Positions 6,801-55,613 of a stretch of DNA of 64,000 bases are shown piece after piece. Both the position numbers and the translations under genes were made by a program. How positions within the stretch are numbered: position 1 is the first letter of the stretch; each line of letters opens with the position of its first letter. Source of the DNA: Raja brachyura. Taxonomy: Eukaryota. The stretch is taken from contig OY740783.1 in NCBI GenBank assembly GCA_963514005.1, forward strand, positions 83,266,001 through 83,330,000. The letters run 5' to 3'. Below the pieces are notes generated by a model that was not told the origin of the DNA, searched no databases, and worked only from the letters and a program-made list of their open reading frames with translations.

Positions 6801-9744
6801 AACTAGTTCGTCATGAAACTCGCAGTGTTTGATTTAATCAGTTTTACACCCCTTTATGCCTTCAGAGAGCAACAACAACTTTCCCATGTTACCAAAAGAG
6901 AGCAGTTTGAAGGCAATACTAATTCAATAAAAAACAGGAGGAGTATTGGTAATTTCTGATGCAGTGGGCTGTGGAGGGACAGCGATGGTAAAGGAGGGAG
7001 AGAGGGCAGGGGAGGAGGGGGAGGTGGAGAGGAAGTGATAATGGGTTGTATAAGGAATCGGTACCATTCTAATAAAACCAGATTTAAAAAAACAAAGCAC
7101 AGCAAAAATCATTGAAGTTAAACATTTGAAATGCTGGCCCAGAATAGACGGTGCCTCAAACAAATGCCAATTCCACAGTGAAGAGGATTCAATTGTTTTC
7201 TGGTCTTTCAAGAAAGTGCTGCCTGACTGCCCTGGCAGCATCAGTGAGTGGAAGCAAGCACTTGGGGAGATCAAAGCAACAACAGCGCGACTGACAGTGA
7301 GAACATAGTCTGCCACCCAGTTGGTCATGCAGCAGGCCGGACCTTGAACAATGAATGAATTTCCAAAACTTTCATTAATCGGTCCTTTACAAATCCATGG
7401 TCTGAGGCAAACAAAACTCTATTCAACAGCCCTGGCCAGCTAAGCTAGGTCAAAGCAAGGCATTCCTGGCCTACAGACCACGTTGCCCTTGTGTGTATCC
7501 AAGTATTTCACACAGCAGGTGGTCAACGACTTCACCTCCAAGCCTCTTGTGACTAAAATGAAAACTGAAAACTTGTCAGGGAGAGCAGATGCGACGTGAC
7601 TGAATTCAGGGCAGCGAGAAGCTTCCTATTCAAAGTCAAAAGCACTTTACATGTTTTGTTTTGTAAAATGACTTGCAGTTGGGGCTACAACCTCCGCTAG
7701 CAGACAGAAGTGGGACTCTTTAACCAAAGTGTTTCCCGCCATGTTGCTACATTAATTACATTGAAATGGAGACGAGGGGACGCCCATGGTCACCCAGATA
7801 GTTAGAGGTAATTGGCATGCATTAATCAGCAGATAGCTCCCATCAAGATCCTTCCAAAGTCACTCCTAAACTGCGAGATGAGGGGTTACGGCTCCCTACT
7901 TTGTATAACAATCCACGACAGATGTACTCGTACTAAGACTCAGCAATATACCTCCCACCAAGGCACAACATCTGCTGCAAGTCCATTTAATCCAAGAAAT
8001 CAAGAAGAAAAACTGCTCTCTAATTCATGTAGCAACCCTACAGATGTTGCCTTCCATTTATCCCTGTCGACCAATGTCTGTAACCCACTAGGTTAAACAT
8101 GAAGCTAATCAAATGCAACAATATAGAATGAACAGTAGATTGTTTTTTTGAATCCTTCAGGTTAAGCCACAAGGGGCAGGAATAAACAGATTCTCTAGGT
8201 CAGATGGAACTGGGGAAATCAATACGTTGTGAGAATATAGAGCTAGCACTAGTGTAGGTGACACCTCACTGAACTATCAAAAGAGTAAAATTACAAAGTC
8301 CAGAAGCAAGACAATTGCTGAAGTTTATCTCAGGTCAGTAATAGAGAAACCTCCGTTCATGTAGTTTCATCCACCTCCTTTACTTTCCAGTATTCTCACT
8401 ATATTAAATAAAAAACATTTTGCAGTCAGCTCACAGAAGGATTTTTAAAAATAAGAACAATGTGATGCACAACTGCTCCTTGTGTTTAATCTTTAAAAAT
8501 CCTGCCATGCCATTTTTTACAAATACTTGAGAGAGAGAGAGACGTGTCTTCAATTTTACACCTTATGGAAAAACAACCTAGCCATTCATATATCACCTTT
8601 CACAAGTACATGAAGTACAGTCACTGCTGAGAGACAGATGCTAATTTGCCCATAACAGTGGGTGATCTGGTAAACTAACGTCTATTGAGGAATCACCATA
8701 AGTCAAAATCCTGGAGGAAAAGCCCTTGTACCTCAGATTGCAAGGGGGACCTTTTATAGCTACCTGAGAAAGCAAAATACAGTTTGTAAACTCTCCAAAA
8801 GTGTCCCCTGTATTGTTCCTTCGGAAGTGTTCAGAAGGAATCTGGAAATATGGAGTATTTCTGTATACAGAACTGAAGGAGTTATCACTGGATCAAGCTG
8901 CAGCAACAGAACCAAAACTGATCGATGTTGAACATAAAGTATCCAAATCAAATCAATGCACCCACTCACGAGGACGACAACATATAATTTTCACTTCCTC
9001 CAACAATCAAGCAATTCACCACGATTCTGCCCTCTACATTTTTGTCATGCCCAATATAGAACAATATACATCTATAATGGATACTGAATTTCTTTGTAGT
9101 CAGCTACTGATTATTCCTTGATAAATCTGCAATACCAACATCACAAGACATTATTAACCTCTTGTGAATTTAGCAACACATCAAGGACATGCCGTGCACA
9201 CCAACTGCTGCTGCAAGCTCATTGAGAAAGCAGGATTAATATTAAACATGAAAGATGTATATAATCAGGTTATTAGAGAATGAATAAAAAAATAAAGTCA
9301 GCTTCAAACAGGAATCGTAAATGTTCAGACATCATTTGACATGAAAGAAACATCCAGCAGCTGGCAAACACCCTTTCACTCCTCTGCTTTGCTATGCTCT
9401 GTTTTAAACCCGGACATAGCGACTTCTGCAGGCTACTGCAGTCCCCGGTTCCATTTCCATCCTGCCAAGTCTCACACAAGAACAGGCTAGATCTTTAACC
9501 ATGGAATATTAATACTAAGTTTAGAGTATCCAGATAAATTCAGTTTCCAGGAGGACTTCAAAGGAAAGTAATGCAGGAGTGGTACTGAGTGTTTCTCATT
9601 CCTATAAGATGTAAATTATAATAAACCCTATCATTTCCCTAACCGGATCAGTAACTCATGCCATTCAAAGGCCATTCAAATTCTTCTTACACACCCAGCA
9701 ACACAACTCTATGTGGCTTTGTATTTAATGCAACACACTCCTTT

Positions 9745-15331: not shown

Positions 15332-15881
15332 ATCATTACGATATGCAGTGGCTGCACACACCGCACAACACAATACCCAAATAAGGCCCATAACGTAGAA
15401 ATATATAAAGGTTGCAAGGAGGAAAATATCACAAACAACAAGCGCACCATAAAATGATAACCATTCTGGTAAGAATTGAAACTGATCCATATTTCATCTT
15501 CCAACCCTCATTTTTGAACATTTCAATAACGGGGATCACAGCTCCAGGTGTCCGTCCTGCGATTGCTGTCACCCGATTAACTCCTGCTCCACAGCAGTTT
15601 TTCTATTTGCAGGTAATACAAACAGTGTCACAATGAATGTGCCCAGACATACACCTCGACAATGACAAAATACTTAGTGAACTTCACGGACTACAAAATC
15701 TCATACAGAGCACAAACTGCCAATAAATGAAGGTGGAAGTTGAGGAAATGCAGTTGTTTTTGCATTTCAACAGTAAAATAAAATAAATTGATAAAGCAAT
15801 ATATCTAGAAAATTCAGATTTCATTCTTGGTCCAATAGACAGCCAATCGTCAGAAATATCACCAGGTTTACTAAACCAAGT

Positions 15882-17496
15882 GTGTAAGAAGGAAATGCAG
15901 ATGATGATTTAAATCGAAGATAGACACAAAGGCTGGAGTAACGGGACAGGTAACATCTCTGGAGAGAAGGAATGGGTAACTTTTCGGGTCGAGAGCCTTC
16001 TTCAGACTGGTTAGGGATAAGAAAAACGTGAGATATAGACGGTGATGTGGAGAGATAAAGAAGAATGAATGAAAGATATGCAAAAAAGTAACGATGATAA
16101 AGGAAACATTGTAAGCTGTTTGTAGTGTGAAAATGAGAAGCTAGTGTGACTTTGGTGGGGGAGGGATAGAGAGAGAGGGAATGCCAGGGCGACCTGAAGT
16201 GAAAGAAATCAATATTCATACCACTGGGCTGTAAGTTACCCAAGCAAAATATGAGATGCTGTTCCTCCAATTTGCGTTTAGCCTCACTTGACAATGGAGG
16301 AGACCGAGGACAGAACGGTCTGTGTAGGAATGGGAAGGAGAATCCGTCAACCGGGAGATCAGGTTGGTTCACGAGGGCTGAGCGGAGGTGATCCACGAAA
16401 TGATTGAACAATGGATACAGTAGATGAGGTTGGAGGACGTGCAAGTGAACCTCCGCCTAACCTGAAAGGACTGTTGAGGTCCCTAGACAGAGTCGTGTGG
16501 GAGGAGGTATAGCGACAGGTGTTGCATCTTCTGCGGTTGCAGGGGAAGGTACCTGGGGAGGGGGTAGTTTGGGTTGGAAGGGATTGCGGAGGGAACTGCA
16601 GAAGGCAGAAAGGGGTGGAGATGGGAAAATGTGGCTAGTGGTGTGATCCCGTTGGAAGTGGCGGAAATTTCGGAGGAATATGTGTTGAATGCGATGGCTG
16701 ATGGGGTGGAAGATAAGGACTGGGGGACTGTCTCTGTTACCACTAGAGGGAGGGGGAGCAAGGGCGGAGCTCCGTGGAGACATGAGTGAGGGCCTCATAT
16801 ATGATGGGAGAGGGGAACCCCCAGTACATAAAGAATTAGGACATCTCGGATGTTCTTGTATGGAACACCTCATCTTGGGCGCAGATGTGGCATAGACGGA
16901 GTAGGGGATAGAGTCTTTGCAGGAAGCAGGGTGGGAAGAAGTGGAGTCAGGGGTTTTATTACAAACAATTGTAACAAGACTATTGACATCAATCAATAGT
17001 CTTTCTCGTGATGGAGACTGTGAGATCAAGAAAGGGGAGTGAGGTGTCGGAGATGGTCCAAGTAAATTTGAGTGCAGGATGAAAATTGGTGGTGAAGTTG
17101 ATGAAGTCCATCAATGTAACAGGGACAAAGATAGAGCATGCAGTATTCAATGTAACAGTGATAGAGTTCGGGGATGGGCCAGTGTATGCCTGGAACAGGG
17201 ATCGCTCAACGTACCCAACAAAGAGGCAGGCACAGCTGGGGCCCATGCGGGTGCCCAAAGCTACGCCTTGGCCTTGGAGGACGTGAGACGAGTCAAAGGA
17301 GAAGTTGTTGAGGGTGACGAACAGCTCCACAAGGTGGAGTAGAGTGTTATCAGAGAGACCACATCACCATCTATATCTCTCGTTTCCCTTATTCCTAACC
17401 AATCTGCAAAACGGTTTTGAATCAAAACGTCACCCATTCCTTCTCTCCAGAGATGCTGCCTGTTTTGCCGAGTTACTCCAGTTTGTTGTGTCTATC
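15882..17496 (-). mobile_element. 5'-truncated Penelope-like element (RT + GIY-YIG C-terminal remnants) with inverted 5' terminal repeat
   Basis: ORF 16989-17330 NNFSFDSSHVLQGQGVALGTRMGPSCACLFVG...LPFLDL matches Penelope-type RT motifs. ORF 15821-16444 KRKLEEQHLIFCLGNLQPSGMNIDF matches the endonuclease C-terminus. Terminal repeat at 15882-16150; inverted copy at 17359-17496. Flanks ACTAAACCAAGT (15870-15881) and ACTAAACTAAGT (17497-17508). Frameshifted. Confidence 0.88.
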
Positions 17497-21630: not shown

Positions 21631-21762
21631 CATCATTGCGTTTCCTCTTGTTATTCTCATTATTAGATGGTGTGATTCCCAGAATTCCACTGATGGAATA
21701 GGAAGATCCCGCAGAATCATTGACAGCGGAAGGAACAGGAGTCACGGGCACAGTGCTTGGTG
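21631..21762 (-). CDS. pax5: Pax5 exon 5 with octapeptide and basic NLS
   Basis: (A)[43 protein letters not shown]. ccatag acceptor, gtaagt donor, 132 nt. Octapeptide YSISGILG is Pax5-type (Pax2 YSINGILG). Confidence 0.96.
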
Positions 21763-24511: not shown

Positions 24512-24576
24512 CGATAGTATGGGATAAAACTGGTGATTGTTGATTTGGAGGCTGCTGCACCTTTGTTCGAATAATC
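24512..24576 (-). CDS. pax5: Pax5 exon 4
   Basis: IIRTKVQQPPNQQSPVLSHTI. ttattcag acceptor, gtaaga donor, 65 nt, phases 2 to 1. Confidence 0.96.
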
Positions 24577-30557: not shown

Positions 30558-30851
<294 letters not shown>

Positions 30852-38562: not shown

Positions 38563-38728
38563 CTGCCCAGTATCTTGCTAACGCAGCCGTGGCTCACTCT
38601 GAGCTGTCTGGAGATATCACAGGGTCTCACTCCTTGGTGGGCCAGTTCCACAATTCGCTGCCGGACAACATCTGGGAGAGGGCGGCCATTCACAAACACA
38701 CCCCCAAGCTGATTCACCCCGCCATGCC
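38563..38728 (-). CDS. pax5: Pax5 exon 2, paired domain N-terminal half
   Basis: [55 protein letters not shown]. tatacag acceptor, gtaaga donor, 166 nt as in the Pax2/5/8 family. Confidence 0.98.
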
Positions 38729-41115: not shown

Positions 41116-41158
41116 TATGCATTGCTGCAAACGGGTCGTGCTTACAGTGGATTTCCAT
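41116..41158 (-). CDS. pax5: Pax5 alternative first coding exon 1B (MEIHCKHDPFAAMH + phase-1 A)
   Basis: ATG GAA ATC CAC TGT AAG CAC GAC CCG TTT GCA GCA ATG CAT A|gtaagt. 43 nt, phase 1, A+GG=Arg joining HGGVNQ. MEIHCKHDPF is the Pax5-1B N-terminus (Pax2 has MDMHCKADPF). Confidence 0.95.
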
Positions 41159-51400: not shown

Positions 51401-52800
51401 CTGTGACGAAAGTTATTGGCAAATCCATCCCCTTCAGTCAAAATGCGCGATAAAAAAACATGGTTTCAAATTGCCGATAAAACGTTTAGAATTGTTCAAA
51501 CGACGAATATTAACGAAAGAAAATAGGAGTAAATAAAAATTCAAAGGAAATTTTAATTCGGTTTCATTTTCTTAAGCGGCACTCGGCTGCACAAAAACAA
51601 GAGCGTACATCTGAATGATCACAGGTCTGCAGCGGGAGACGGGCCCGAAGATCTTCAGAGCAAAGACCAGAACAGTTAAAATAAACATTTTAGCTATTTT
51701 TGCGTTTTGTCTTTTGAAAATGCTGTGATTTGAACATTTCATGCTAATATTCATCCACAAAATCGAACGGCTCTGTTAGTCGTTAACGAAGCCCCAAATC
51801 CTAAATTCACATTTCGAGTTTTTGTTTCGAAAGGGTGGCGGCACTAAACTTAAGGGCAGTAGTTGGGTTGGGGTGGGGGGAGGTACACATTCACCCACAG
51901 GTCACGGATTGTCTAATAATCTCCTAAAGAGAAGCCAGAATTAGCAATTTCCAGTATCTCCCCACCCGCAATGAATCAATCGAACTGTACACATATTTGG
52001 AAAAAAATGCAGACGGGGCACCGAAGTCAGCCATTGGACACATTTTAACTATCTTTATATAGCGAAAGAGCATAAAATAGAACTCGGTAAATATCCTCGA
52101 TCAACGAGAGAACAAACGGACCGTCGTGTACAGAGACAATCAAGAGCTCAGCTCCATTCCCTCGCACACGAAAGCACCACTTTGTGGCGTATTGCAGCTT
52201 TAAATTCTAACAATTTCGGGTGCAGGTCCGATTCCTACAGCTTTCTGTTGTACAGTGACAACCATCGCGTAATAAACATTAAACATTAAACTTTTGCAAT
52301 TAAACGTGAAGTGGTTTTGTTTTTTTAAATAAATGTAACTGATTGCACCTCAGAAGTAACCCCTGACCTATCTTCACGCCACTCGGAATCGCCCACAAAG
52401 AGTTTTTTTATAAAGTTACAAAGCTGATATTTGGTAGGGACACTAATCTGAACCCAGTGGAACCGAACACCTTCTGCAACCCGGACACTGCGGACAGTCC
52501 TTCGCCGTGAACCGTACAGGGAGATATGCTTTCCCTTGACTTCTGTTGAGCGTTCGTCCTAGGTTTTCACAGTGCATTGCATTTACTTTGAGCAGTTTCC
52601 AACACTTGAATTTTCATTAAGCCTCACTTGATTAATTAAAAGTGTTCACTTTTTTAAAAACAAAGTGTCTTAAGTCTTGATAGTCTTTTAAAGCACTGGG
52701 TACTGTTTAATTCTACAAGTAAATACGGGACTGTTTCCAATACAGCCGCTTCATGCTTTCGAACTATTTGCACATTTCACAGAAAAAAATATAAACCTAC

Positions 52801-52840
52801 CTGATCGGATTCCCCTGATGGCGCTACCGTTTTTTTCCAT
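52801..52840 (-). CDS. pax5: Pax5 alternative first coding exon 1A (MEKNGSAIRGIRS + phase-1 G)
   Basis: Minus strand reads AGT-ATG-GAA-AAA-AAC-GGT-AGC-GCC-ATC-AGG-GGA-ATC-CGA-TCA-G then gtaggt donor. Strong Kozak (A-3, G+4). 40 nt, phase 1, fits exon 2 (G+GG=Gly, then HGGVNQ). EKN...R.G resembles mammalian exon 1A MDLEKNYPTPRTSRTG, and the upstream leader resembles the human 1A 5'UTR as recalled. Confidence 0.85.
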
Positions 52841-52901
52841 ACTAGTTTTCGTATTGCGAATCCTTTGTGAAAAGACTGGAAGAAAAGTTTCTATTTTTCG
52901 C

Positions 52902-52944
52902 TGTGTGTGTGTGTATGTGTGTGTGTATGTGTGCGTGTGTGTGT
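52902..52944. repeat. Interrupted (TG)n/(CA)n microsatellite inside the exon 1A leader
   Basis: Seen directly. Confidence 0.95.
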
Positions 52945-53022
52945 TGTCGGCTCCGGATAATTTGACTCTTCCGCTACCCCGTCGCGTCTTTGGTGCTGCC
53001 CATTGATCCGAAACTAAACGTT

Positions 53023-53097
53023 TTAGGTGGAGAAAAGGCTCTGAACAAACCGTGAAATGATTAAGGAACTAAAAGAGCTCGCTACATGTGAGATCAT
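53023..53097 (-). other. Upstream ORF in exon 1A leader, 24 aa MISHVASSFSSLIISRFVQSLFST*
   Basis: Read directly: ATG at 53097 to TAA at 53025-53023. Translation is not demonstrated. Confidence 0.6.
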
Positions 53098-55613
53098 GTC
53101 CTGTTCGCTTTAAAAAAATCGCCAAGTCCCTTGACGCAGCGAAAAGAAAGTAAAACTCTCACATCTGCCGGACAAATCACTCCTACCTATCGCTTTCTGT
53201 AACTTTGTGGTTGTCTCTTTCGCCTCCAGTCTCCACTGTGCGAATGTTTACAACGCCTGGCATTTACAAATACTTGCACTAGAGGATCTGTATGGATGGG
53301 GATTCTGAAACACCGCATCACACGCCGATTCAAGCACCACTAACATTGAATAATTGAAGTCCTTTCTCGACATTTCACTCTCTAACTTCCTTCCTCAAAT
53401 TGGCACAAAAACATTAGGTAGTTTTATCTGTACCCGGGGAGACAATTGCAGACACCCCCTCCTACTCTTCCCCACCAAGAAGCGACACCTTGTAGCGCAC
53501 AGTTTTTTCCGATTTCTTCTTAAATACGGCGCTGCTGTTTACAATTTTGTGTCGATTTGACTCTTATTGGGAGTGGGAACATACAAAATAAAAGCGCTCA
53601 TCATCCGTACCCCATCGTCCTACATTTGTACTCATTTGACATTTTCTAATATAAAATAAACTTTGCTCCAGTTATTGTCGCATTTTTAAAAGAAAATATT
53701 GACTGATTACTGTATCCATGGTTAGAAATTGGCGGAGCGAATGCACTCGGCCATATTTCTGTCTGCAACTTATGTTGAAATTATATCAAAATTGGAGCAC
53801 GCAAAATGTGCAGCATTTGCCAGTGCCGGCGGAATGGACTTTTCCACAGGCAGTCAGATGTTCATTTCCCGCTGCACTTAACCTTTAACCGGTGACCGCA
53901 ATACAACTTTACGGAAGTTTTAAATACTAATTGATTCGTGTCAATGGGAAGGTCTCGTTGAAATTCAAGTACCAACTTCAAATACCAAGTCAAGTGAATT
54001 TACACGATTCCGCCTGTCTCATATATACGTTTGCAAGAACGCAAATGAATTAAATAAAACCTGAAGTTACAGAAACCTGGATCACTTTCACAACGCCTGC
54101 AGCTTTGGTTTCCTCCATATATTTTACAGATTAACACCAGCACCACATTAGGTCAAATTCATATTTAGGCAATACATGGTCCTAGCTTTTGTTTGGGTAT
54201 GACCACACGAGAAAGCTCAAGGCATGATTTACAGCATAAATTCAATATGTTTTTTTTTAACATGTTGTTTGTTTGTTTTTAAAGCCTGAATAACCGGTAT
54301 AAAAGTCCATGGTCAAAAACTACAATTAGTGTCTTAATCCTAACGGATTTCAGTCCGAAAAAATGAATTATCCCGTTTTGCAGAAATGTTTGGAGTGTCT
54401 AGGATGTTCAGTTTAACGAGTTTAAGAAGTGACCTCGGCTTACAGGTGAAATTTAAGGAACATAAATTGCCCAATATAATGTTGTATTAGATACAATATA
54501 ACCTACATGGAGGAAAGTGTCGCCAATGTTTCGTCATATAAGCATATATTCAGAACTACTGTAATAAAATACTTTTGTTTATGTTTTTCATCATATATTT
54601 AAATGTTTGTGTTCTTTCATAAACCAAATCAGGTGAGTTTATTTAGACAGGGTCGCTTTTTACACATGGATTACCTGAAATGCTTTAATAAGTAAATTAA
54701 TACCTTCAAATTATCATGAAGAACTTTTGGACAACTGACGTAGAATTGGACTGTTTGCAAGTTAATGAAATAACTAAATATTCACATGAAAATGTATGCA
54801 CTATATCAAATACACGCATTCAGATCACCGGGCCAAATTTGGAAATTTTGATAAATGCAAAGTACCTAAACATCTATTTAAACTTACATCTTTAAATATC
54901 GGAAGTAATCATTCCAAATAATATGAAATAATGTCAATTCCTTTGTTTTATGATCATTCGCAATTCTATTAAAGACTAATTCTACCTAATGCACAAGGTC
55001 GCTAATATTTTATTTTTGGATAAGGGGCAATTTAATGAAGTGGGGGAAAATGTTTACTTAAAAGTTAAATTGGACCCCTCGCAGTTAACCCGGAACATAA
55101 TAAATAATTATGCCTAGTGCAATTTTATTGTGAAACAAATACCCTATGTTTCTCCATAGTTGGACGCTTCCACGGTGTACAAACAAATCCTGATCCTGAA
55201 GCATTCTTAGATTTTTGGTTCTGCTCACAAAACACGAAAATTAATTTGATCAAGTAAATATATAGAGAATATTTGTAATAAGTTATTCAATTCCAAAATT
55301 CTTGAAGTTAATTTTTAATTTGGTATTCGATATATGTGCCATATTTCTTTAATTGTGATTACCTGTTTTAGCTAAATATTCAAAATATTACTTTGCCAAT
55401 GTCTGAAATGTGATTAGTAATAGGTTGTGCATCATTAGCCCACACTGCATTAAATATATCGTGTATACTAACTTGACAGATATCAGAGTGCAGTAATTAT
55501 ATGAAACCATTGCCATCGCTGCTCCTTTCAATTCACTAATATGTTGTGTGAAACAGGCCCCACAGCTAACCTATGCGAGCATTATTTATAGTTGTATATT
55601 TAATGTTGGCTTC

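Follow-up and report, generated by a model that had tools for sequence, protein, structure and literature searches.

A short upstream first exon of Pax5 in the skate Raja brachyura is shared across jawed vertebrates and may predate the Pax2, Pax5 and Pax8 duplications

Upstream of exon 1B, the Pax5 gene of the skate Raja brachyura has another short first coding exon, of the 1A type, that is spliced to exon 2 in a contig (X4) from a related species, is likely to have a promoter of its own, and likely goes back to a short first exon that existed before the duplications that gave Pax2, Pax5 and Pax8, a combined reading that we hold with reasonable confidence. The window, that is, the whole 64,000-nucleotide stretch analysed (G000:C3:83266001-83330000, in a 2.7-Gb genome), corresponds to the 5' half of Pax5 on the minus strand. 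Its initial annotation had placed a 40-nt phase-1 coding exon 11.6 kb above exon 1B, and the letters, the start context, the donor and a profile comparison all bear this out. The coding part (52801..52840, minus) reads MEKNGSAIRGIRS followed by the first base of a glycine codon: an ATG at 52840, flanked by A at -3 and G at +4, begins 13 codons and one further base that run to the donor CAG/GTAGGT at 52801/52800 (intronic GTAGGT at 52795..52800, minus), and both start and donor are strong. Its phase is that of exon 1B, whose ATG lies 11,643 bases from the 1A donor, and the exon 2 acceptor (38728) lies 14,073 bases away. Scored with a profile of 57 distinct bony-vertebrate 1A peptides, this donor ranks first among the 79 open phase-1 donors in 35 kb.

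The remainder of the locus is Pax5. Exon 1B (coding part 41116..41158, 43 nt, phase 1, MEIHCKHDPFAAMH), recognized from the sequence and RefSeq models, is followed by exon 2 (38563..38728, 166 nt), which carries the shared acceptor and the first half of the paired domain, exon 3 (30568..30765, 198 nt) with the second half, exon 4 (24512..24576, 65 nt) and exon 5 (about 21631..21762) with a Pax5-type octapeptide context, all on the minus strand; the exons after exon 5 lie beyond the window. Exons 1B, 2 and 3 match Amblyraja Pax5 at 100%, and at exon 3 the identity reaches 100% with the Pax5 models of Amblyraja radiata and 97-98% with those of teleosts. The gene thus combines a paired domain, a Pax5-type exon 1B and the octapeptide context, and is separate from Pax2 and Pax8 of the same genome, which were placed on contigs C39 (94% versus 80% to the Pax2 query) and C37, respectively. 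Within intron 5, broken reverse-transcriptase/LINE-like frames were seen by eye at window 15800-17400.

Direct evidence for use of exon 1A comes from assembled reads of relatives. Part of the stretch is shared by 24 sequencing runs, 0 of 24 recorded as RNA; four runs of guessed RNA status, picked for sharing words with the 52300-53400 stretch, were mapped over that interval, where three gave one contig each and X3 gave none (a result that can be false). The X4 contig follows exon 1A, leaves the window sequence at 52800, and continues with 29 bases that map once, to 38699-38727, which is the start of exon 2 (2 mismatches; 0 matches expected by chance). In this contig of a relative, from a run guessed to be RNA, exon 1A joins exon 2 directly and skips 1B. 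The 52801-to-38728 junction that had been proposed as a check is therefore present in one of the three contigs; X8 and X1 reveal no donor because the former ends at a CA repeat and the latter goes loose within the leader. All three contigs also pass 53110, which had been given as the upper bound of the first exon, so that position is no demonstrated start site. The guessed-RNA contigs extend far above the presumed start, through window 53190-53400 and beyond (about 1.9 kb in X4), which could reflect a long leader, a transcript that starts upstream or runs antisense, or a run that includes DNA.

The 14 residues attributed to skate exon 1A, counting the splice-linked glycine, are identical to the start of Amblyraja radiata Pax5 isoform X2 (XP_032873766.1), and the exon is thus already predicted in automated models of close relatives. 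Among 15 chondrichthyan Pax5 models, seven start in the 1A manner, seven in the 1B manner and one otherwise; with Chiloscyllium added, 1A-type models span eight elasmobranch species (skates, rays and sharks), each with a 14-residue start (XP_032873766.1, XP_059825097.1, XP_051875476.1, XP_072137940.1, XP_072920086.1, XP_078414375.1, XP_069782013.1 and XP_072445745.1; RefSeq XP records being automated models). Both start types are modelled in Amblyraja, Hypanus and Mobula birostris.

In human, mouse, bird, reptile, frog, gar, eel and zebrafish, 1A contributes 16 residues before the HGG of the paired domain, and the peptides align without gaps when anchored at the splice site, the skate being two codons shorter. 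The two-codon shift of the start codon noted earlier against the human sequence therefore stands at the protein level, as 14 residues in elasmobranchs versus 16 in bony vertebrates. Over the 13 ungapped residues, skate 1A is identical to human at 5 positions, to mouse and two frogs at 6, and to zebrafish, gar and arapaima at 4; all nine 1A comparisons gave shuffle p values of 0.0002-0.02, whereas 1B shares 0-1 residues. The tetrapod exon 1A alignment, which had been named as a check, is found at the peptide level and ungapped, with 5-6 of 13 residues identical in human, mouse, alligator and two frogs (shuffle p 0.0002-0.0004). Judged from these peptides, skate exon 1A is orthologous to bony-vertebrate 1A. 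The possibility that there is no exon at all, and that the ATG and donor came about by chance in upstream DNA rich in CpG, draws on the several short ATG...R-S-G/GT matches in the 117 kb above Pax8, but is highly improbable in the face of the spliced contig, the identical RefSeq N-terminus and the orthology scores.

In its architecture the skate exon resembles mammalian and chicken 1A (PAX5A, BSAP; PMC6132355, PMC4301804, PMC2504290, PMC9456430): an upstream phase-1 first coding exon above 1B that feeds a common exon 2. The residues E-K-N, R and R-S/T-G are conserved in register between them, while the skate peptide has 14 residues rather than 16, starting two codons later, and the 1A-to-1B distance is 11.6 kb compared with about 7 kb in mouse. 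The starts of zebrafish NP_571713.1 and Carassius BAG66241.1 occupy the same position before HGG and end in G-R-S-G as in the skate, but have 16 residues and match the skate at 4 of 13. The label 'mammalian-type' given in the initial annotation is consequently too narrow, as 1A is present in teleost, gar, frog, reptile, bird and shark models as well; with this start in elasmobranchs, frogs and fish as well as human, exon 1A is a pan-gnathostome feature rather than a mammalian one.

This also bears on the published record. PMC6132355 has PAX5A appearing with mammals, and its Table 1 lists 'no hits found' for 1A in Xenopus, zebrafish, fugu and lamprey; the elasmobranch, frog and fish 1A starts correct that printed claim. 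The same source likens 1B to PAX2 exon 1 and describes the mouse Pax5 isoforms as acting nearly interchangeably, and PMC4301804 has both first exons in use in chicken. The origin of 1A is not treated in the available parts of PMC4488758, PMC2532684, PMC9456430, PMC9141580 and PMC8199221, and in the literature open to our search we found nothing on a cartilaginous-fish exon 1A, nothing that compares 1A with the Pax8 or Pax2 exons, and no passage on lamprey Pax5 expression.

The two Pax5 promoters were reportedly defined in a 1996 PNAS paper, and the sequence above skate exon 1A offers a candidate for the upstream one. A proximal 5' leader (52841..52956, minus), which includes a CA repeat at about 52900-52945 and is variable among the relatives' contigs, gives way to a constrained non-coding block (52957..53107, minus) in which the three contigs carry 0, 0 and 2 substitutions versus 7, 5 and 13 in 53111-53197, the runs having been selected by shared words. 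This block is likely the core promoter or 5' leader. It contains upstream ATGs at 53097 (24 codons), 53087 (1) and 53003 (9) that might lower translation were they part of the leader. A word scan found no canonical TATA box near the block; the human 1A promoter is described as containing TATA (PMC2504290). The sole TATA-like word nearby is TTTAAA at 53109..53114 (minus), a putative element at the border of the block. A scan of metagenome contigs for the block, with a 20-base motif, gave 0 matches. CpG observed/expected is 0.5-1.0 across window 30001-60000 and 0.2-0.3 outside it, with GC of 33-45%; the value is about 1.0 at 1A, but the elevation spans all of 30-60 kb and so does not single out a promoter. 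This 30-kb stretch, which covers the 5' part of Pax5, resembles a large unmethylated domain. Similar CCAAT-box words (TGATTGGCA) were noticed by eye in the window 41700 region above exon 1B and in L014 near 8320-8345, the latter sitting above the expected position of Pax2 exon 1.

Most probably two promoters feed one acceptor, with the 52957-53107 block presumably giving Pax5A and a promoter above 41158 giving Pax5B. Pax5A and Pax5B differ only in 14-15 N-terminal residues, so that the role of this arrangement would be control of place or amount, tuning where and how much Pax5 is made. PMC4301804 and PMC6132355 give mouse 1A as the B-cell first exon, and by analogy a B-cell bias of skate 1A is somewhat favoured. 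It is nevertheless quite conceivable, if the less probable case, that the exon is old and used but that skate 1A is a general or neural/testis promoter, with B-cell restriction arising later, in bony vertebrates or amniotes. No exact consensus for EBF, Blimp1/IRF, STAT5 or EICE occurs in the 2 kb above 1A, where an EBF-like palindrome with one mismatch (53440-53431) and other B-cell factor motifs do not exceed chance, the contigs extend beyond the block by as much as about 1.9 kb, and with the whole 30-60 kb stretch CpG-rich the two promoters may both be accessible in a wide range of tissues. Against such general use stand the modelling of a 1A isoform in eight elasmobranch species, the near-invariance of the non-coding block, and the fact that B-cell control in mouse comes partly from an intron 5 enhancer (PMC4301804), beyond the 2 kb scanned here; the same paper places an EBF1 site 1.1 kb above mouse 1A. 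General use is compatible with a history of exon 1A that predates the duplications, and differs from B-cell bias on use only.

Evidence on that history comes from the paralogues. Pax8 proteins of sharks, rays and mammals open with a 9-residue peptide ending R-S/T-G, which in this genome is encoded by MSHSAGRS+G, a 25-nt phase-1 exon at C37:806460-806436 (minus), 23.1 kb above the paired exon. A second Pax8 first coding exon, MSGFTLAA+G (25 nt, phase 1), occurs at G000:C37:806929 (L012, minus), about 470 bases from MSHSAGRS+G; RefSeq Pax8 models of sharks and rays include both types, and in some skate models a later donor lengthens the peptide by five residues. Another match above Pax8, MLATVNRS, was dropped, as it fits no Pax8 model whereas MSHSAGRS does; such matches thus arise by chance. 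In Pax2, a candidate upstream first exon, TAHGTGRS+G, ends at a strong donor (GTAGGC) 5 kb above exon 2 (G000:C39:7636382-7636358, L015, minus) and has ACG at the expected ATG position; its length and ending agree with the start of smelt Pax2a, and it could represent a start at a codon other than AUG, an exon without coding function, or a relic. No Pax2 1B-type exon was found in the 104 kb searched, and about 2 kb above Pax2 exon 2 the sequence is interrupted by a run of N that directly follows CCAAT-like sequence, so the order of Pax2 exons is a presumed one.

Scored with a forward profile built on the last eight residues of bony Pax5 1A, the Pax2 site comes first of 495 donors and the Pax8 exon second of 542 (2 and 4 with the splice-linked last residue unweighted), and a Pax8 profile likewise puts the Pax2 site first of 495 with or without weighting of that residue. 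The reverse test is weak, as the Pax8 profile places the skate 1A donor 8th of 113 (23rd unweighted). An ATG-started 25-nt site, MSTNVGRW+G (window 53635-53611, minus), 770 bases above exon 1A and with a weak GTACGG donor, has the top Pax8-profile score among these 113 donors; it has no contig coverage and is probably due to chance. The 12-mer around the 1A donor is identical at the Pax2 site; it occurs twice in 608,000 strand-bases, and 0.0014 occurrences would be expected in the 104 kb searched. The comparison of 1A with Pax8 and Pax2 was, however, chosen after the motif had been noticed, and the final S/T/A-G is partly dictated by the CAG/GT donor consensus. A degenerate genome-wide short-exon pattern was uninformative, returning one match on C7 and one in the control and missing both paralogue sites.

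Similar starts extend to protein models of other deuterostomes. Osmerus (smelt) Pax2a, XP_067092713.1, opens MPHSLGRSG (a short R-S-G start in 1 of 37 Pax2-classified proteins), two hemichordate Pax2/5/8 models open MPHSGRSG (one being XP_077999057.1), and tunicate HrPax-258 has SRSG directly before HGG. A 1B-type start is seen in Pax2 models and in one hagfish model, a starfish has two different N-termini, and in amphioxus models neither start type is clear; no lamprey protein was returned. The Pax8 first exon (human-type MPHNSIRSG; shark MSHSTGRSG), the smelt protein and hemichordate XP_077999057.1 resemble 1A in placing a short R-S-G N-terminus before the same paired exon; they differ in comprising 8-9 residues, of which the last four or five carry the likeness to Pax5 1A, and homology would have to be inferred from these.

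The initial annotation had dated the upstream promoter to the jawed-vertebrate ancestor, when Ig-based B cells arose. Given the upstream exon of this genome's Pax8 and the candidate one of its Pax2, which end at similar donors, together with the smelt and hemichordate starts, this dating is probably too late, and descent of exon 1A from a first exon that existed before the duplications appears fairly likely. The corresponding scenario, to which we lean, is that a single pre-vertebrate Pax2/5/8 gene had two alternative first exons, an upstream one ending R-S-G and a downstream MDxHCK exon. Following duplication, Pax8 would have retained the former and Pax2 mainly the latter, an upstream exon with ACG at its start persisting in this skate's Pax2, with only Pax5 keeping both in full use, and B cells would have co-opted an old promoter, their control being added onto the old upstream start of Pax5. 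An upstream site is present in all three paralogues, so the argument is independent of their branching order. About four residues tie 1A to the Pax8-type exon, and residues beside the paired domain could converge. Less probably, 1A and its promoter arose within Pax5 on the jawed-vertebrate stem along with Ig-based B cells, the Pax8 and Pax2 likeness being convergence at a donor beside the paired domain. Among the models examined a 14-16 residue 1A peptide is indeed confined to jawed-vertebrate Pax5, the Pax8 profile ranks skate 1A only 8th of 113, and blastn searches with the sequence above 1A and above 1B against DNA upstream of Pax2 and Pax8 gave nothing meaningful, hence no DNA likeness for the 1A promoter region; the B-cell use of 1A in mouse (PMC4301804, PMC6132355) also fits such an origin. 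A first exon older than the duplications better accommodates the top ranking of the Pax2 and Pax8 sites by the Pax5-1A profile, the shared 12-mer, the same position above a shared acceptor in all three paralogues, and the near-identical short N-termini in Pax8, smelt Pax2a and the hemichordate.

Whatever its age, exon 1A provides isoform-specific junctions as a means to trace B cells versus neural Pax5 in skates and sharks, and comparison with it points to a candidate Pax2 upstream exon overlooked so far. If the paralogue reading is true, Pax2, Pax5 and Pax8 would plainly exemplify promoter subfunctionalisation following the vertebrate genome duplications, and for the rise of Pax5 to B-cell commitment gene attention would move from a new exon to new enhancer inputs at a start that already existed.
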